From assembly GCA_016196885.1 (NCBI GenBank), contig JACPWU010000006.1:1-28676 (forward strand): a stretch of DNA of 28,676 nt, given 5' to 3'. How positions within the stretch are numbered: the first letter of the stretch is position 1; every line of letters begins with the position of its first letter. The position numbers and the translations under genes are program-made. Source of the DNA: Chlamydiota bacterium. Lineage in GTDB: Bacteria > Auribacterota > JACPWU01. This document shows, one piece after another, positions 9,858-19,984 of the stretch. The notes beneath the pieces are model-generated. The model saw only the letters and a list, made by a program, of their open reading frames with translations. It searched no databases and had not been told where the DNA came from.

Positions 9858-9920
9858 GCACATGTTCAAATGGGTTCGACATCTCAAAAGATGTTTGAAC
9901 AAAGTCCAGATTTAGAGTAT

Positions 9921-10088
9921 AGGCATATGCACTTGATTCCCCTTTGTAGTCGCCCGATTCATCGGGCAAACCCATGCAAGGGGCACAGCCCCATGAATGG
10001 GGCGACTACAACTTCTTGCCATGGCGCTTGCTATCTAAGGGGAATCAAGTGCATATGCCTATCTAAGGGGAATCAAGTGCATATGCCT
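9921..10088. mobile_element. Type-2 MITE-like element, copy B (intergenic) with a tandemly duplicated right end
   Basis: 9921-10060 differs by one base from copy A. The 28-bp right end ATCTAAGGGGAATCAAGTGCATATGCCT occurs twice in tandem (10033-10060 and 10061-10088). Confidence 0.85.
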
Positions 10089-10125
10089 AATTATTAATCC
10101 AAGCCGGGTCGGTGGAGTTCAGGAA

Positions 10126-13250: not shown

Positions 13251-13318
13251 GGAGATTCTGTCCGATACAATGTAGGAGAGTCGAAGAAAGAATCTTTAAG
13301 CCAAAGGCTTACAGGTGA

Positions 13319-13459
13319 ATCGGCTTGGTCTCCTCCGTTCCGTCGGAGACTGTGTCCTTCCGCCACAAAGCAAGGCGGACAAGCTGCCTTCGCAAGAGAT
13401 TTTATTTTTGTCCGCCCCCCAAAAAATCAACTCCTTTCAAGGTAGTTTTGCTCAGGCTA
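13319..13459. repeat. Type-3 structured repeat, left copy (inverted partner of 15376-15516)
   Basis: 141 bp with 3 mismatches (counted by eye) to the reverse complement of 15376-15516. Contains stems GTCTCC/GGAGAC, TCCGCC/GGCGGA, and the mutually exclusive GGCGGACAA/TTGTCCGCC. Confidence 0.85.
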
Positions 13460-13502
13460 TTATAGAGATGGTTTCATTTGTCAGACCATTCATACATAGA
13501 AT

Positions 13503-13685
13503 ATGCAAATCAATCGAGTTAAAAGAGGAAAGTTTTCAGAAATTAAACTTGAAGACGGACGAAAAATATTCTTATCTGTCTTTCCTGATCGTATTACTGC
13601 GTCATTAATGTTTCTGTTTATTCCTACTAAGAAAATATGGGAATTCATATTTCCTTTCTATATTAGAACAGCAATTGATGGATAG
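13503..13685 (+). CDS. Hypothetical small protein (60 aa)
   Basis: ORF only. It overlaps the next small ORF by 8 nt (ATGGATAG). The two may be one frameshifted gene. Confidence 0.2.
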   Translation: MQINRVKRGKFSEIKLEDGRKIFLSVFPDRITASLMFLFIPTKKIWEFIFPFYIRTAIDG

Positions 13686-13797
13686 TTCGGCAAGAGCAAG
13701 GAATTTTCTAGTTTTTGATTTAGGAAAACAAATTTATAGAATTGACGAGAAGGCGTTCAATGACTATTTCAAAAAAGTAAAGTTTCTCGATGAGTAA
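13678..13797 (+). CDS. Hypothetical small protein (39 aa), not in the ORF track
   Basis: My own translation gives MDSSARARNFLVFDLGKQIYRIDEKAFNDYFKKVKFLDE. It ends 11 nt before the start of gene 13809. Confidence 0.2.
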   Translation: MDSSARARNFLVFDLGKQIYRIDEKAFNDYFKKVKFLDE

Positions 13798-13808
13798 TAT
13801 TTTTTTAT

Positions 13809-14354
13809 ATGAATCATAAATTATGGTTTTATATTTTTGTTGTATTTTTCAATGTTATTTTTTGTATGACATTTTCATCTTATGAAACCCATGCACAGGT
13901 GAAGAAAGAAATGTCAGCAAAGGACTTACTCAAATCCCATGCTTTGGAGGTTAATGATTTGCTTACGGCTTATATTGAACTGCACGATGATGCCTTAAAA
14001 GAATCCGGAACCTTTGAAAGTCTTTTCAGGCACGTAGACTTCGAAAGCCTACACAAGAGGTCTATAGATATCCACTCACGGTTAAGTACAAAACAGAAAG
14101 AACTGGAAGATTTCTATAAAGAATTTTATTCTCAAGCAGATCCAGATTGCCGATTGTATTATGACGCGTTACATATCTTTGTAGAAAGATTAACAAGAAC
14201 CACAGCTCTTCTAGAACAAAGGCAACTGTTTTTATATAAAAAAGCAAAGGGTGAAGGAGGCACTTTCTCTGATTACATGAAGATCGAGAAAGAATATCAG
14301 AACTCCGTCAATGATTATATGGAAGCGGGTAATAAACTGAACCAACTAAATTAA
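13809..14354 (+). CDS. Hypothetical secreted or membrane-anchored helical protein (181 aa)
   Basis: Has the N-terminal hydrophobic segment LWFYIFVVFFNVIFCMTFSSYETHA. The rest is charged and helical-looking. No family recognised. Confidence 0.55.
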   Translation: MNHKLWFYIFVVFFNVIFCMTFSSYETHAQVKKEMSAKDLLKSHALEVNDLLTAYIELHDDALKESGTFESLFRHVDFESLHKRSIDIHSRLSTKQKELEDFYKEFYSQADPDCRLYYDALHIFVERLTRTTALLEQRQLFLYKKAKGEGGTFSDYMKIEKEYQNSVNDYMEAGNKLNQLN

Positions 14355-14402
14355 TCTTATCTTTTGAACCTCAATGGTAATTAGCCCATTTCTATGAACT
14401 CC

Positions 14403-15266
14403 CTAACTATTAGAGAGAACCGCGAAGAAACTTTCCAAGTCGTAGTATTTTTTCGAAGGAAATAACTGCCCCCAAGCGTTTTTCATAAAATGCTTCTCAT
14501 CAGAAATAATAGCGTCTACACCAATCAAATAATTAAGATACTGTAAGTCTTGAAAATAGTTTTTATCTATATGCTTCTTATTATCAACCGTCATTGCATA
14601 CCAAGCTGCAAAAAGAAGTCCTTCAATAAATTTGGTAAAGTAAGGACACCGTTTATCTCTATATTTTAACCAATAACTTTTACGTTTATCCTTCGTATCT
14701 ACAGAAATTGCTGCTTTTTCAATGTGAACTAACGCCATGGATTCCAAATTTTTCCCTAGAAACGCCTGAAAATCATTGTCTTTTCTTTCCAAATCACTAT
14801 TCTTATATTTTTTAAGAATTTCCTCATTCATTTCTACATATATCTTTCGATTATTTTCTTTTATCTCTTCTCGCTGCCTAATCTGAGCAACTAATTCGTC
14901 TTTGCTGTTCACTGCTACACTTCCACTAATAGCTGCAGATAACCTAGCTTTAATTAATGAAACTTTGTTTTGCTTACAAAAAAGATATTCGCTTAATAAT
15001 TTACCATCTAGTTCCATTTCAAATATGTCAGCAGTATCTTGAAATAACTTCTGCCATGGCAAGTCGACAAGGAACCTTATCGATTCAATTCCAGCCGTAT
15101 TCACCTTTTCTTGCGTAAGAAAATGTAATTTCTCTTCTGCAAGAACAGGAATCATGTAAAATGTCAGCTTCTTCTTTTGACAAAGCTCCAATAGACTAGA
15201 CTCTCTAAGACGTTTCAAATTCGCTGGTATTAAAATATTTGAGTCTAAAACAAACTTAAGGCTCAT
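14403..15266 (-). CDS. Hypothetical protein with a split PIN-like signature (function uncertain)
   Basis: The N-terminus KFVLDSNILI resembles PIN strand 1. The C-terminus QDLQYLNYLIGVDAIISDEKHF resembles the distal PIN acidic motifs. A charged insert of about 190 aa separates them. AAGGAG lies 7 nt upstream of the ATG. Confidence 0.5.
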   Translation of the reverse strand: MSLKFVLDSNILIPANLKRLRESSLLELCQKKKLTFYMIPVLAEEKLHFLTQEKVNTAGIESIRFLVDLPWQKLFQDTADIFEMELDGKLLSEYLFCKQNKVSLIKARLSAAISGSVAVNSKDELVAQIRQREEIKENNRKIYVEMNEEILKKYKNSDLERKDNDFQAFLGKNLESMALVHIEKAAISVDTKDKRKSYWLKYRDKRCPYFTKFIEGLLFAAWYAMTVDNKKHIDKNYFQDLQYLNYLIGVDAIISDEKHFMKNAWGQLFPSKKYYDLESFFAVLSNS

Positions 15267-15341
15267 AAAGTCTCCTTGTCTAGGAGTTTATCATAAGCCT
15301 TTAACTCAAACACTTCAGAACCTTTTACAACCCGCAACTGT

Positions 15342-15516
15342 AATTCGGCTTGCTCCACGAAGCGGGGAGTGGCCGAGCCTGAGCAAAACTACCTTAAAAG
15401 GAGTTTATTTTTTGGGGGGCGGACAAAAATAAAATCTCTTGCGAAGGCAGCTTGTCCGCCTTGCTTTGTGGCGGAAGGACACAGTCTCCGACGGAACGGA
15501 GGAGGCCAAGCCGATT
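15342..15516. repeat. Type-3 structured repeat, right copy (longer, with its own ~10-bp terminal inverted repeats)
   Basis: 15376-15516 matches the reverse complement of 13319-13459. The extra 34 bp (15342-15375) begins AATTCGGCTTG, which is the inverted partner of the other end CCAAGCCGATT. Confidence 0.85.
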
Positions 15517-15585
15517 AAAGATCCTTTTTTCTACATTTGTGGATCATATTGGGTAAAATAATAGATAGAGTTCGAATTGATTTTG

Positions 15586-15794
15586 AATCCGGAGCCATTT
15601 TATAAGTATCGAACTGGGAAATTTGACCCCCCACCGTCAAATTTCCCTTTTTTGTTTCGGGGAACTCCTTATTTATCCCAGCGGTCGCCCCCACCCGACA
15701 GCAGGATAGAGGAAAAGAAACATCTACTGCCGCACTCGGCCCTTTATCTGCCATAGACAGCGGGCCTCCATTGTTGGGTATTTGTGTCTCAGAG
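15586..15794. repeat. Type-4 repeat, copy D1 (diverged, with ~75-bp extra block)
   Basis: Shares three blocks with 17026-17141: AATCCGGAGCCA..TTTTA, a 22-nt identical block CCAGCGGTCGCCCCCACCCGAC (15678-15699), and a 19-nt identical block GGGTATTTGTGTCTCAGAG (15776-15794). It lies immediately 3' of the stop of gene 15807-16451. Confidence 0.7.
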
Positions 15795-15806
15795 GCTTTT
15801 TTAAGA

Positions 15807-16451
15807 TCAGTACTTAGTAATGAAAAGAAAAAAAGTGCTAATAAATGCAATTCCAGAGACAAACAGTCCTATGGTCAACCAATAGAATAATGTTAGCAGG
15901 CGGGTTTTAACTCCAATAGGTCTCTTAAGACCTTCAAGATAATCTTCGTCATAGAATCTCAGGCTATCTCGAAAATTACATAAAAATTTTGTCTTAATTT
16001 TTTCGTCAACTTTTTTGTTTCCTGTTGTTGCTATTTCTTCAATCTGGTTTCTTATATTGTGTCCTTCCCAAAGATTTTTTAGAATTTCCACTCCTAATTT
16101 CATTGAGACATACCTAATTTCAAGAAAAATCTTAAAGACTAACGCAGAAAATACGGTGAGAACTAAAAGCTTGGAGCCTAGGACCAAAATTTCTACATAA
16201 GCTAAGTCGTTTGAAAGTTTGTTAAAAGTAAAGAATAGAGCTCCTGTCGCTAAACCAGTGAGCCAATTAATGAAGTTATCTCGACCTGAGAGTTTGGTTT
16301 GCAAAAACTCGTTGAGTTGTTCGTGATATTCCTTATTGTGTGGATTGTCGCACTTGCGTTTGATCTCTTCGGCTTTTTTCTCAAGTTCAGCTATATCTAT
16401 CTTCTCGTCAGACCGTTTTAATTTGTTGATTAGCCACTTAAACACGCACAT
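15807..16451 (-). CDS. Hypothetical integral membrane protein (214 aa)
   Basis: Has a charged N-terminus and hydrophobic segments FINWLTGLATGALFFTF, LVLGSKLLVLTVFSALVFKIFL and LLTLFYWLTIGLFVSGIAFISTFFLFI. No family recognised. Confidence 0.55.
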   Translation of the reverse strand: MCVFKWLINKLKRSDEKIDIAELEKKAEEIKRKCDNPHNKEYHEQLNEFLQTKLSGRDNFINWLTGLATGALFFTFNKLSNDLAYVEILVLGSKLLVLTVFSALVFKIFLEIRYVSMKLGVEILKNLWEGHNIRNQIEEIATTGNKKVDEKIKTKFLCNFRDSLRFYDEDYLEGLKRPIGVKTRLLTLFYWLTIGLFVSGIAFISTFFLFITKY

Positions 16452-16470
16452 TTCTTATCCTTACGATAAT

Positions 16471-16818
16471 TTATTGTTGCTTCGTATCATTATGATATTT
16501 TTCTTTCAACTTGTTGAGTTTATCGTCTAACATTTTAATGGTGTTTTCCCAATGAGAATCTATTATTTTTAGTTTTTCATCGAAAAAAATCTTAAAAATT
16601 TTGAAAATATTTAGAAATGAGAGCAGGATAACTATGTAATAGAATTTGTATTCATTTTTATCCTTCGGAAATTGGAAATAATGAACCTTAACTTCTTTTG
16701 GTAAATCTGTATCGTCCCTTTTGAATTCTAATCTATGGAAAAAAGAATTTACATCTGCATGTGAGCCGAATAAAATAAAGGGGTCAAATAAAGAATAAAA
16801 ATAATAAAGGTAAAGGGG
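16471..16818 (-). pseudogene. Start-less 115-codon open frame (possible 5'-decayed gene) upstream of the membrane protein
   Basis: My own translation gives ...FHRLEFKRDDTDLPKEVKVHYFQFPKDKNEYKFYYIVILLSFLNIFKIFKIFFDEKLKIIDSHWENTIKMLDDKLNKLKEKYHNDTKQQ*. The only in-frame ATG is 20 codons from the end (16533). The stop lies 19 nt before ATG 16451. Confidence 0.3.
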
Positions 16819-16968
16819 TCAAGTCTTTTCTTGACTACATATAAGAGTGACTCGGCACCTTTCATTCCACCCTCCCATCACCCCAAAAGAACGGCTTCAC
16901 GGAGGGAGTAGAGTCTTTGAATTTTCGGACAGACGGCCTCCCTATTCGTCCTGCCCTCGAGGCAGAAC

Positions 16969-17008
16969 AAAAAAATAAGCCAGGTCACGGAGAAGTGCCT
17001 TGGCTTAT
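16969..17008 (-). terminator. Rho-independent terminator downstream of the DUF4238 operon
   Basis: The minus strand reads ATAAGCCAAGG-CACTTCTCCGTGA-CCTGGCTTAT followed by TTTTTTT, a stem of about 10 bp with one bulge. It lies about 160 nt after the stop at 17167. Confidence 0.55.
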
Positions 17009-17025
17009 TTTGGCTCCGGATTCAA

Positions 17026-17141
17026 AATCCGGAGCCAATTTTAATAAGGTGTCGCCGTTGGCGACTTTATCTTTTTGGCCCAACCCGTCATTTTTTCCAG
17101 CGGTCGCCCCCACCCGACCGCTGGGTATTTGTGTCTCAGAG
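17026..17141. repeat. Type-4 repeat, copy D2 (compact, intact hairpins)
   Basis: Contains a perfect 10-bp stem CCAGCGGTCG/CGACCGCTGG (17097-17124), GTCGCC-GTT-GGCGAC, and GGCTCCGGA-TTCAAAA-TCCGGAGCC just upstream. It lies in the 3' untranslated region of gene 17167-18126. Confidence 0.7.
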
Positions 17142-17166
17142 ACTTTTTCGGAAGCTAATACATAAA

Positions 17167-18126
17167 CTAACCGACTTTAATTTTTATTTGGCTATCCTTA
17201 TACTTTGTCGCTAGTGATCTCAACCCTTCAGATTTAAGAGATGAAAATATAAATCGCCAAGATGCACTTGCAGTTCGTCTATTAAATTCTTTGACGAGCT
17301 GGTTATCAGCCTTGTAGTAGCTTGCATCGAGTTTCCATGAACCAAAGGCGCAAATGTCCTTGGAAAGGGGTAAAGTGACTTCAATATTTTTGTTCCCTAA
17401 GCCATATCCGTAGAAAGAAACCCGTTTATAACTGGGATCAATATAATTAAACGGATTATCCCCTGTTATAAATTTATTTTCATCTGATGCTTCAAAAAAG
17501 CCCCAGTGCATTTGTTTAAAAATTCTTGCAAATTTTTTTAAAAGAGATAAGGAAGTTGTAATACCTACCTGAGGATTCATTCTCATCTCAAAGTTCTTGT
17601 CAAAGTGCAAGACAGTCTTTCGATATTCCTCAAAAGGCATGCCAATAGTCTTTCCCGTTTTTTCTTCAATAGCCTTTACCGACCTTTCAAATGCTTTTTC
17701 ATCTGCTGCTAACATTTGTAATATCTTTTTATTAATTCCTGAAAACGCTTCCCCAACGTTGTCTCGAAAATTAGGAGCCCTAATCTGCATCAACGCGACA
17801 AAAAAGCTAAAAGTTATCATTTCGGAGTCTGTTAAAGATTGTTTATTCAAAATCTTCTTTATGACGGGTAAAGTTTCATTTTCCATATCCGTTATCAAGT
17901 TCTCTAGTGTCTCAGAATCTTTCTGTCCGTTTTCATTTATAAACGTGAAATAATCATTTTCATACGCTATGGCTTCAGGTTTTTCCTCAAACACTTCACT
18001 ATTATTTTTGTTATAAACCCACAAACACTCACTTGGAGAAACAAATCTTTTCAAGTAAGCGACTGGAATATAGTGATGCTTCTTCTTTGGCTTAGACTTT
18101 TTGATGTTAGGTGCGGCTTTTGTCAT
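17167..18126 (-). CDS. DUF4238 domain protein
   Basis: The N-terminal HHYIPVAYLKRF matches the DUF4238 signature (HY-P--YL--F), and the later WGFFEASDENKFITGDNPF block also fits. Length is 319 aa. The start lies 4 nt after the stop of the HTH gene. Confidence 0.75.
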   Translation of the reverse strand: MTKAAPNIKKSKPKKKHHYIPVAYLKRFVSPSECLWVYNKNNSEVFEEKPEAIAYENDYFTFINENGQKDSETLENLITDMENETLPVIKKILNKQSLTDSEMITFSFFVALMQIRAPNFRDNVGEAFSGINKKILQMLAADEKAFERSVKAIEEKTGKTIGMPFEEYRKTVLHFDKNFEMRMNPQVGITTSLSLLKKFARIFKQMHWGFFEASDENKFITGDNPFNYIDPSYKRVSFYGYGLGNKNIEVTLPLSKDICAFGSWKLDASYYKADNQLVKEFNRRTASASWRFIFSSLKSEGLRSLATKYKDSQIKIKVG

Positions 18127-18130
18127 GATT

Positions 18131-18307
18131 TCATCTCACAAGTTTATCAATAGAAACTTCCAAAGCATCGGCTAACTTTATGACAGTTCCGATTCTCGGA
18201 TTCTTTATTCCGTTCCGTTCAATCTTTATAAGAGTGTTGTAAAAAATACTTGCTTCTCGATCGAATTTCTCTTGTGAACAGGTTTCACGGGTTTCCTTTG
18301 CTCTCAT
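18131..18307 (-). CDS. XRE-family helix-turn-helix protein (58 aa), not in the ORF track
   Basis: My own codon-by-codon translation gives MRAKETRETCSQEKFDREASIFYNTLIKIERNGIKNPRIGTVIKLADALEVSIDKLVR. The IERNG..NP...T.IKLADAL.VSIDKL pattern is typical of HTH_XRE. It is packed 4 nt from both neighbouring genes. Confidence 0.6.
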   Translation of the reverse strand: MRAKETRETCSQEKFDREASIFYNTLIKIERNGIKNPRIGTVIKLADALEVSIDKLVR

Positions 18308-18311
18308 GAAT

Positions 18312-18752
18312 TTATTTCCAACCCAGTATGATTTTTTTGTCTCGCATGGATATCAATCTGGAAGAAGCAACAAGTTGGTCAATTTGATCCATGATTTCTA
18401 AAGTTAATGTGCCTACAAAATGTACAAGATTTTGCCGATATCTCTCACTCAATTCAGTACGAGGAAAAGACCAAACATTTCTACAATCAATGATTGTCTC
18501 CAGAGGAAAAAACGATAATTCACGGGGCTGGATTCGGACAAAATCCTTAACTTCAGGATGCTGATTATAAAATTCAATTTTAGAAGTGGTCAAAAATAGG
18601 AGCGTTTTGGAATCACTGGGATGTTTGTTAAGAACAATGATATATTTACTTTTTGTTTCACCCCTCTTGAAATGAAGATTCGTTAAAAGAACAACGCCTC
18701 TCTTGAACTCTTTTTCAAAAACACTGTCATGAATGATCGGAGGTATGTCCAT
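18312..18752 (-). CDS. Putative toxin partner of the DUF4065 antitoxin (MazF/PemK-like pattern, uncertain)
   Basis: 146 aa. FKRGVVLLTNLHFKRGETKSKYIIVLN...LLFLTTSK resembles the MazF/PemK N-terminal barrel pattern (G-vv-v-f..GhE..K-RP-vVls...v-P-TS). It starts 11 nt after the DUF4065 gene stop. Confidence 0.45.
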   Translation of the reverse strand: MDIPPIIHDSVFEKEFKRGVVLLTNLHFKRGETKSKYIIVLNKHPSDSKTLLFLTTSKIEFYNQHPEVKDFVRIQPRELSFFPLETIIDCRNVWSFPRTELSERYRQNLVHFVGTLTLEIMDQIDQLVASSRLISMRDKKIILGWK

Positions 18753-18763
18753 TGACGATAGGA

Positions 18764-19375
18764 TCAGGTTGGAGAAGCTAACAACGAAACTAAATCTACA
18801 TGTTCCTGAAGAATTTCAAGATATTCTATAGCTTGGGAATTTGCATCCTTATCATCCTCAAAAAATAAGCGGTAATCAATTTCTCCATTTTTTTCAGATT
18901 TATTCCAAGGGGCCTCTTTGTGAGTTGAGGTAATCAATTTATTCCAGGACAAATGTCCATATTTTTGAATGGTATTGTGTAAAGATTCTTGTTCGGATTC
19001 AGAGAGGCAGTCTAGATCAGGTGCTTTTTTAGGTTCGAAAGTCGGATGTTTACTTTGAGTGTTTACTTTGAGATATCTTTTAAAAAGTTCTAAATTGCTC
19101 TGCTGAATATTTGGGATTTTATAAGGAGAAATCGCTTCATTGATAATATCCAAAGCTTTTGATGGAACAGGGCCATAGTCTAAGTGAAAATAGACATCTC
19201 CCAAGATGGGACGCCCATATCTAACCAAATGGTACTTATCTGCATAATAAAGAAGTTTTACAGCTTTAAGCTTATCTAGATCCCTTATTTTTGAAGCTAA
19301 GAGAGTTAAACAAGCAATAAACTTCTCATTGTCAAATTTAAATCTAATAGGGGGCTGAGAGGCTGAAATATTCAT
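18764..19375 (-). CDS. DUF4065 (Panacea/SocA-like) antitoxin-type protein
   Basis: LDKLKAVKLLYYADKYHLVRYGRPILGDVYFHLDYGPVPSKALDIINEAI matches the DUF4065 core (KLLYyAd...g.pi.g..y.a...GPV). Length is 203 aa. A perfect TATAAT (plus-strand ATTATA at 19390-19395) lies upstream. Confidence 0.75.
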   Translation of the reverse strand: MNISASQPPIRFKFDNEKFIACLTLLASKIRDLDKLKAVKLLYYADKYHLVRYGRPILGDVYFHLDYGPVPSKALDIINEAISPYKIPNIQQSNLELFKRYLKVNTQSKHPTFEPKKAPDLDCLSESEQESLHNTIQKYGHLSWNKLITSTHKEAPWNKSEKNGEIDYRLFFEDDKDANSQAIEYLEILQEHVDLVSLLASPT

Positions 19376-19426
19376 AATTTATGGAAGGAATTATAGCATC
19401 TATATCCCGATTTTAACACGAGAAAC

Positions 19427-19503
19427 TGGCTCCCCGGGCAGGACTCGAACCTGCGACATACTGGTTAACAGCCAGTCGCTTCTACCAGCTGAGCTACCGG
19501 GGA
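19427..19503 (-). tRNA. tRNA-Asn (anticodon GTT), CCA encoded
   Basis: The reverse complement TCCCCGGTAGCTCAGCTGGTAGAAGCGACTGGCTGTTAACCAGTATGTCGCAGGTTCGAGTCCTGCCCGGGGAGCCA folds as a cloverleaf: acceptor TCCCCGG/CCGGGGA, anticodon stem ACTGG/CCAGT with loop CTGTTAA, and T arm GCAGG-TTCGAGT-CCTGC. It closely resembles E. coli tRNA-Asn. Confidence 0.9.
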
Positions 19504-19984
19504 GTAATCTTGAAACTCCTGAGAAATTTTGATTGCTCTAACAATGACCTAAACAACCTAACAATAAAAACAAGCACGTCACCGACCATTCCCCTCCCTT
19601 GATCCTAAAGGACCGCGCTTCGCTGGTGGAAGGGGTAAGGGGAGGGTGATTTTAAGCCCCCCTCCCTAACCCTCCCCACGAAGGGGGAGGGAAAATCCAC
19701 TTTCATTTGCATCATTCAATAGCCTACGACAATAATTTCTTTTCAAGAAGCTATCAGATGCACTAGGATACTGTCAAGGGAAGCTAATTCATACTTCCCA
19801 CCATGAACTTAAAATGGTTATAGACCATTCCCGAGTGTATTTATCGGGGATCCCATGACAAAAACCCTAAACGTGGATTCCCGCTTACCCCTTTCTGGGG
19901 CTACTTCGTTGAAGCTTGTGGGAATGATAGATATGGGTGAAAAATGTACGCAAAAATAGCTTGGCTCAAACAGCAATTACAACG

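Follow-up and report, generated by a model that had tools for sequence, protein, structure and literature searches.

Toxin-antitoxin pairs that combine an antitoxin of the Panacea (DUF4065) type, PanA, with a MazF/PemK-like toxin, PanT, have been validated, and the toxins concerned inhibit translation; their likeness to MazF/PemK was seen via HHpred only (Kurata et al. 2022, PMC8832971). A standalone Panacea domain neutralises its toxin directly (Ernits et al. 2023, PMC10440598). Protection of Escherichia coli against T7 by one DUF4238 protein alone, encoded in a P2-like prophage hotspot, has been described (Rousset 2022, PMC9122126). The locus described here carries genes of both kinds. It is located in a window of 28,676 nucleotides (nt), the whole stretch of DNA analysed, which was taken from a contig (JACPWU010000006.1) of a Chlamydiae metagenome-assembled genome (MAG; GCA_016196885.1); 100%-identical matches in the homologue searches carry HYS08_ locus tags. 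Four open reading frames (ORFs) of 203, 146, 58 and 319 amino acids (aa) follow each other on the minus strand, spaced 11, 4 and 4 nt apart, and a tRNA-Asn gene lies 51 nt upstream of the first. They encode, in this order, PanA, a 146-aa protein, a 58-aa helix-turn-helix (HTH) protein of the XRE type and a DUF4238 protein.

An earlier note on this DNA, made from the sequence alone, had described the tight packing of these ORFs beside tRNA-Asn, and re-derived coordinates as well as ARAGORN and Rfam predictions of the tRNA agree with it. Its Panacea, XRE and DUF4238 assignments all exceed the respective Pfam cut-off values (PF13274, SocA_Panacea/DUF4065: 84.6 bits, cut-off 25.7; HTH_3: 30.5 bits, cut-off 23; DUF4238: 141.1 bits, cut-off 27). 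NCBIfam yielded an above-threshold name for none of the four proteins, and viral contigs scanned for three of the families contained no relatives. Real homologue families were found for all four ORFs, which marks them as genes rather than reading frames occurring by chance.

The locus is made up of known kinds: a small foreign island carries a toxin-antitoxin pair of the PanA:MazF-like type together with a defence-type gene, DUF4238. We consider it likely that a rearrangement linked the pair to a solitary DUF4238 gene and an XRE gene truncated at its 5' end, and that the four ORFs do not constitute one system. The four genes were never found together elsewhere in the neighbourhoods reached from the PanT, DUF4238 and HTH families, so that the co-occurrence considered in the earlier note did not materialise.

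PanA and its 146-residue partner

PanA consists of a standalone Panacea domain (residues 40-157) and a conserved acidic, hydrophobic C-terminal segment. An N-terminal HTH was not detected in the protein, which is conserved along its full length, including the C-terminal segment. Comparison with the NCBIfam model of the SocA equivalog yielded 27 bits, which is below the cut-off of 190 and identifies PanA as a protein other than the SocA equivalog. PADLOC gave no matches for PanA or the 146-aa protein.

Gene neighbourhoods of the 146-aa family were compared in six loci (L001-L006) and in 11 added metagenome loci (L018-L028). The homologues of the first set, at 50-58% identity, were placed on contigs with differing flanks. 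In every locus with upstream sequence (about 12), a PanA homologue was found directly upstream of the 146-aa homologue (adjacency seen in L001-L006, L018-L020, L022-L024, L026 and L028). These PanA homologues show identities of 59-69%, with one at 42%. The latter belongs to the most diverged locus with upstream sequence (L028), in which the pairing is kept at a toxin identity of 37%. The gaps between both genes range from about 3 to 21 nt across at least 12 loci with different flanks, and a third gene is never conserved. Neither tblastn nor family hidden Markov models (HMMs) detected homologues of the 58-aa HTH or of DUF4238 in the PanA/146-aa loci, and no same-strand ORF starts there within 100 nt past the toxin gene. 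PanA and the 146-aa gene form a conserved, self-contained two-gene module.

When compared to Pfam PF02452 (PemK_toxin), the 146-aa protein gave a full-length but sub-threshold match (12.3 bits, cut-off 23.1, E 0.2). The MazF/PemK-like character proposed for it earlier is supported by the predicted fold (AlphaFold2, Foldseek) but not by this Pfam model. The AlphaFold2 model (predicted local distance difference test, pLDDT, 90; predicted template modelling score 0.82) features a MazF/PemK-like SH3-barrel plus added N- and C-terminal helices. The best 16 matches in a Foldseek search of the PDB were all MazF/PemK proteins or the type III ToxN-class toxin CptN, with E-values down to 2.2e-4 and target-normalised template modelling scores of 0.45-0.71.

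The family of the 146-aa protein comprises 490 representatives of 50%-identity clusters (E <= 1e-3), almost all of them 135-160 aa in length. Among 130 members, with identities down to about 21%, only G18, K35 and T55 are near-invariant. The profile built from these 130 sequences aligns weakly with Bacillus subtilis EndoA/YdcE (E 0.25) and places T55 onto the catalytic T48, while K35 falls at the position of the catalytic R25 of B. subtilis MazF by manual motif alignment only. PemK_toxin was the sole Pfam family matched by more than one family member (E <= 0.01 in 4 of 130). Searches with the family profile against PDB sequences yielded nothing significant (E 0.38 or worse with a 16-sequence profile, 0.25 with the 130-sequence profile), and an hhalign comparison with a single MazF sequence (probability 4%) was taken only as a hint. 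On these grounds, the 146-aa protein is regarded as a candidate MazF-fold toxin that probably cleaves RNA; it is not filed as a member of the Pfam PemK family.

The DUF4238 gene and the XRE-type remnant

The DUF4238 protein covers profile positions 1-279 of 281 and thus contains the full-length domain. It is a distant match to the PADLOC model DUF4238-Pers (52.6 bits; E-value in Table 1) and matches phrog_29785 at 3.9e-12. Its predicted structure (pLDDT 86) found no match among solved structures and matched one viral protein (E 1.2e-10), which originates from the P2-like Stenotrophomonas phage Smp131. Its placement by the earlier note in a single-gene anti-phage family is upheld by the PADLOC match and by the described anti-T7 system (PMC9122126). 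By homology, it would be an anti-phage defence-type protein.

About 11 contexts of close relatives with 42-50% identity were inspected (L007-L012, L029-L037); the scan of the genome collection reached this close subfamily only. None of these contexts contained PanA, the 146-aa gene or an upstream small HTH. A conserved neighbour was not found in the about 11 loci either, as the neighbours change from locus to locus. They include a restriction-type helicase, AbiEii, SoFic, Schlafen/AlbA_2 with Fic, an MNT nucleotidyltransferase, Dcm with Vsr and an integrase fragment, all of which are typical defence or mobile-element genes. Among its close relatives, DUF4238 is a solitary gene without a conserved partner.

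Two further observations concern these relatives. The gene is frameshifted or truncated in a Thermodesulfovibrionia MAG (L035, 4001-4923) and in an Omnitrophota MAG (L037, 4001-4231), which suggests frequent decay. The nearest relative (P0018; L007, 4001-5302; 50% identity) was called as a protein of 433 aa with an N-terminal extension of about 115 aa that begins with a hydrophobic segment; the extension could reflect either a variant anchored in the membrane or a wrongly called start.

The 58-aa ORF belongs to a highly conserved XRE family with members of 63-67 aa, 50 of which were retrieved at 59-79% identity over 81-88% of the query. In PADLOC, it gave weak regulator-type matches only (capH and control-protein models). 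Its match to HTH_3 begins at profile position 10, and its N-terminus does not feature the 'MYLKNL' of the family and is about 6 residues short. Comparison with the family consensus showed no identity in the first nine aligned residues (0/9), as opposed to 39 identical residues among the other 48. The ORF does not encode a complete five-helix XRE domain; helices 2-5 are kept and helix 1 is lost or rewritten. At the DNA level, similarity to the family is recognisable only from about the 'TCACAAGAG' (Ser-Gln-Glu) codons on. The conserved C-terminus of the toxin reaches its own stop codon, and since only 4 nt separate this codon from the HTH ORF, the missing codons could not be accommodated. The unrelated N-terminus and the lack of room upstream indicate that the XRE gene lost its promoter and first helix at the PanAT junction. 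Judged from the sequence, the junction resembles what a rearrangement juxtaposing unrelated modules would leave.

In five contexts, members of the XRE family precede unrelated genes, namely Fic; DUF3192; a nucleotidyltransferase-like gene with GmrSD_N; MerR with a giant protein; and DUF7685/7686. The family member is divergent from a large serine recombinase in two of the five. In L015 (1446-3198) and L017 (1399-3195), small XRE homologues diverge from a serine recombinase (Resolvase, Recombinase, Zn_ribbon_recom) and variable cargo follows. These contexts suggest that the family provides the lead gene of an integrative element. As far as can be read from its relatives, the 58-aa HTH is of a promiscuous lead-gene type and not the 'dedicated' small regulator of DUF4238 that had been suggested, since members of its family are followed by Fic, DUF3192, GmrSD-type and other genes and the copy here is 5'-truncated.

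Genomic setting and transcription signals

The operon is situated at one end of a low-GC island (Table 1), which also contains a gene for a 214-aa membrane protein and, between the arms of an inverted repeat, a segment of two genes. The GC content of windows is 0.33-0.41 in the island and 0.41-0.50 in the flanks; for genes, the values are 0.33-0.37 and 0.43-0.48, respectively. The scanned island ORFs of at least 90 aa contained no integrase domain, and a second copy of the tRNA 3' end was not found, even with 3 mismatches allowed. A classical tRNA-integrated element was rejected on these two grounds, as the signal is compositional only. The region is a compositionally foreign accessory island and not a recognisable intact integrative element. 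The tRNA was the sole Rfam match.

Table 1 Coordinates of the operon, its candidate signals and its surroundings in the window
Feature	Position	Strand	Basis and remarks
tRNA-Asn (GTT)	19427..19503	-	ARAGORN; Rfam tRNA 63.8 bits; upstream boundary of the low-GC island, on the operon's strand
Candidate extended -10 element TGcTATAAT	19390..19398	-	Found by eye; 14 nt upstream of the PanA ATG; inferred
PanA antitoxin, 203 aa	18764..19375	-	Pfam SocA_Panacea 1.2e-23
PanT toxin candidate, 146 aa	18312..18752	-	Predicted MazF/PemK-like SH3-barrel fold; family without Pfam model
PanAT/XRE gene junction	18278..18311	-	4-nt spacer plus the initial ~10 HTH codons, which show no relation to the XRE family
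58-aa XRE-type HTH ORF	18131..18307	-	Pfam HTH_3 3.7e-7; 5'-truncated copy
DUF4238 protein, 319 aa	17167..18126	-	Pfam DUF4238 6e-41; PADLOC DUF4238-Pers 1.1e-14
Structured 3' region of the operon	16969..17148	-	Four strong hairpins; RNA fold -80.8 kcal/mol, z = -5.05
Low-GC island, ~6.2 kb	13251..19426		Between a multihaem cytochrome gene and tRNA-Asn; operon at one end

The candidate -10 element upstream of PanA has no good -35 hexamer and was not listed by the promoter consensus scan. The 200 nt past the DUF4238 stop codon form four hairpins, the final one of which (17009-16974) is followed by a T run and looks like an intrinsic terminator. The sole terminator-like hairpin of the operon is thus located 3' of DUF4238, and together with the gaps of 11, 4 and 4 nt this indicates that the four ORFs are probably co-transcribed. 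The promoter of the shared transcript would probably be located shortly after tRNA-Asn. An 11/12 match to the sigma-70 consensus (TTGACC, 18-nt spacer, TATAAT; 18564-18593, minus strand) was detected within the toxin gene and precedes the HTH ORF by about 250 nt. The number of promoter-like matches across the region equals the shuffle expectation.

Several repeats were observed in the window. A multi-hairpin repeat is present in two diverged copies (15579-15801 and 17011-17148), which have exact 20-22-mers in common and sit directly 3' of two minus-strand genes, those for the 214-aa membrane protein and DUF4238. It looks like a terminator or an element of the repetitive extragenic palindromic (REP) type punctuating the modules of the island. 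Integron attC-like cassette sites were considered for these repeats and rejected, given their multi-hairpin, terminator-like structure, the presence of other dispersed repeat families in the genome and the fact that no integron integrase was seen. Inverted repeats of 141 nt (13318-13458 and 15376-15516; 98% complementary) bracket the two-gene low-GC segment, which may be a mobile or invertible cassette. It encodes a 181-aa ORF (13809-14354, plus strand) and a 287-aa ORF (14403-15266, minus strand), the N-terminus of which bears a faint resemblance to PIN domains (PIN_3, E 0.09). At least two further dispersed repeat families of about 140-185 nt with 93-99% identity were found (4292-4457 and 9912-10098; 1945-2129, 6593-6777 and 24429-24568), some copies of which are within listed ORFs. 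One of these families has 37-nt terminal inverted repeats and resembles miniature inverted-repeat transposable elements (MITEs). Upstream of tRNA-Asn, a G/C-rich stretch (19595-19700, minus strand) has inverted-repeat character (…CCCTCCCCCTTCGTGGGGAGGGTTAGGGAGGGGGG…CCCTCCCCTTACCCC…), and part of it is complementary to 16868-16884.

Readings of the locus and comparison with described systems

The likely reading put forward above assumes independent accessory modules that were joined by rearrangement within a small, horizontally acquired island beside tRNA-Asn. The first module would be a type II PanAT pair. Based on the MazF/PemK fold and on the near-invariant Lys35 and Thr55 at the presumed positions of the catalytic Arg and Thr of MazF, its 146-aa protein is most likely a sequence-specific endoribonuclease that blocks translation. 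By analogy to published work on PanA, the antitoxin most likely neutralises it by direct binding. The second module would be the solitary DUF4238 gene. Between them, a small gene for an XRE regulator appears to be left with the 3' four-fifths of its length; its family normally leads variable cargo operons on mobile elements. Where this gene meets the toxin gene, its promoter and first helix would have been lost, and the remnant would persist as an ORF of 58 aa that starts at a new, fortuitous position. The coupling of the four ORFs would then be a local accident and not a conserved design.

Of the two arrangements offered by the earlier note, two stacked modules are retained in a refined form, in which the HTH is a truncated leftover, while a four-component unit is not. 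A stack of two functional modules would comprise PanAT and a genuine pair of XRE and DUF4238, with the 58-aa HTH repressing DUF4238 until infection, similar to C-proteins or CapH-like regulators. The 4-nt gap between the two ORFs, an HTH_3 score that exceeds the Pfam cut-off, the weak PADLOC matches to capH and control-protein models and the position of the XRE family directly upstream of defence-type cargo (Fic, GmrSD_N gene pair) are consistent with such a pair, and the sigma-70-like match at 18593-18564 could drive an HTH-DUF4238 transcript. We nevertheless regard it as unlikely: an upstream HTH was found in none of the about 11 close DUF4238 relatives, the copy here has neither the conserved helix 1 nor the start of its family, and promoter-like matches in the region do not exceed the shuffle expectation. 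A single defence or abortive-infection system with four components, PanA/PanT, HTH and DUF4238 acting jointly, is hardly probable at all in view of the truncation scar where the modules meet and of the lack of co-occurrence in related loci, whether searched from the PanT, DUF4238 or HTH families. The tight packing, the probable co-transcription and the origin of every part from families tied to defence or toxin-antitoxin biology speak for it.

A different objection concerns the toxin itself. Strictly conserved pairing with an antitoxin-family gene, a MazF fold predicted with high confidence and near-invariant residues at the presumed active-site positions in 130 diverged members argue against the possibility that the 146-aa protein is an inactive MazF-fold or CcdB-like binding protein, or that the pair has a role outside toxin-antitoxin biology. 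In addition, analogous PanTs that were linked to MazF by HHpred only are toxic and inhibit translation (PMC8832971). A non-toxin role would fit a PemK_toxin E-value of only 0.2, the weak sequence-profile matches to MazF in the PDB (E 0.25) and the Lys at the catalytic Arg position (alignment by eye), and we judge it to be quite improbable.

Some points weigh against the reading as juxtaposed modules with a MazF-like toxin. The 146-aa protein is under the PemK threshold of Pfam, and a Lys takes the place of the canonical catalytic Arg, so that the RNase activity is putative. The truncated XRE protein retains its recognition helix in an intact frame and may still bind DNA. The 4-nt spacings fit translational coupling, so that some functional linkage may exist in this genome. 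The neighbourhood comparisons cover about 11-14 independent contexts per family, all of them from metagenomes and mostly on short contigs. A functional consequence of the operon fusion in this organism ranges from unlikely to very unlikely, depending on how strong a coupling is meant. That the fusion was co-opted, with the PanAT pair and the residual HTH controlling or stabilising DUF4238 expression in this Chlamydiae lineage, appears very improbable. In that case, PanA could for example serve as an infection sensor, the loss of which sets free the MazF-like RNase and allows the coupled DUF4238 effector to be translated, and the locus would be a lineage-specific composite abortive-infection operon.

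The analysis documents a sizeable PanA-associated MazF-fold toxin family without a Pfam model (about 490 clusters at 50% identity), a candidate addition to toxin-antitoxin and defence annotation resources, and adds an environmental Chlamydiae genome to those with PanAT and DUF4238. It also provides a clear example of how closely spaced genes of an accessory island can give the false impression of a multi-gene 'system', the juxtaposition being revealed by neighbourhood conservation and a truncation scar. Its value is modest. It raises no new mechanistic question besides the pre-existing one as to the role of DUF4238. The combination had not been recognised as a described system; this holds for the four-gene set, which was not met in the other neighbourhoods reached, but not for PanA with a MazF/PemK-fold toxin, which was already described and validated (PMC8832971).

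With SocAB, the type VI toxin-antitoxin system of Caulobacter, the locus shares the SocA/Panacea domain in the antitoxin, from which it differs in the SocA equivalog score (27, cut-off 190) and in a toxin partner that is unrelated to SocB. The type II systems MazEF/PemIK (EndoA) share the predicted toxin fold, a conserved Thr, which the weak profile alignment places onto the catalytic Thr48 of the B. subtilis toxin, and a C-terminal 'G-L-x4-M-x2-ID' helix motif similar to that of MazF. In contrast to these, the antitoxin is PanA instead of a MazE/PemI of the AbrB or ribbon-helix-helix (RHH) fold, and the toxin exceeds theirs by about 30 aa and does not reach the PemK threshold of Pfam. Rst_DUF4238 from the P2-like prophage hotspot (Rousset et al. 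2022) has in common with the gene studied here the full-length DUF4238 domain, relatives that are single genes in variable defence or mobile-element contexts and a predicted fold also found in the Stenotrophomonas phage Smp131 protein. Differences are the distant PADLOC match (52.6 bits), the host, a Chlamydiae MAG, the position of the gene at the end of a fused operon and an anti-phage role that is assigned here by homology. Compared to PanAT (Kurata et al. 2022, PNAS; PanT of Pseudomonas moraviensis and Bifidobacterium ruminantium), the 146-aa family differs in its extra terminal helices and in the Lys at the presumed position of the catalytic Arg. Shared features are the upstream Panacea/DUF4065 antitoxin gene, a small downstream toxin with a MazF/PemK fold, here predicted, that is missed by domain databases, and a two-gene architecture with a gap of less than 100 nt that is kept across taxa, the likeness to PanAT being drawn from this architecture and the fold.

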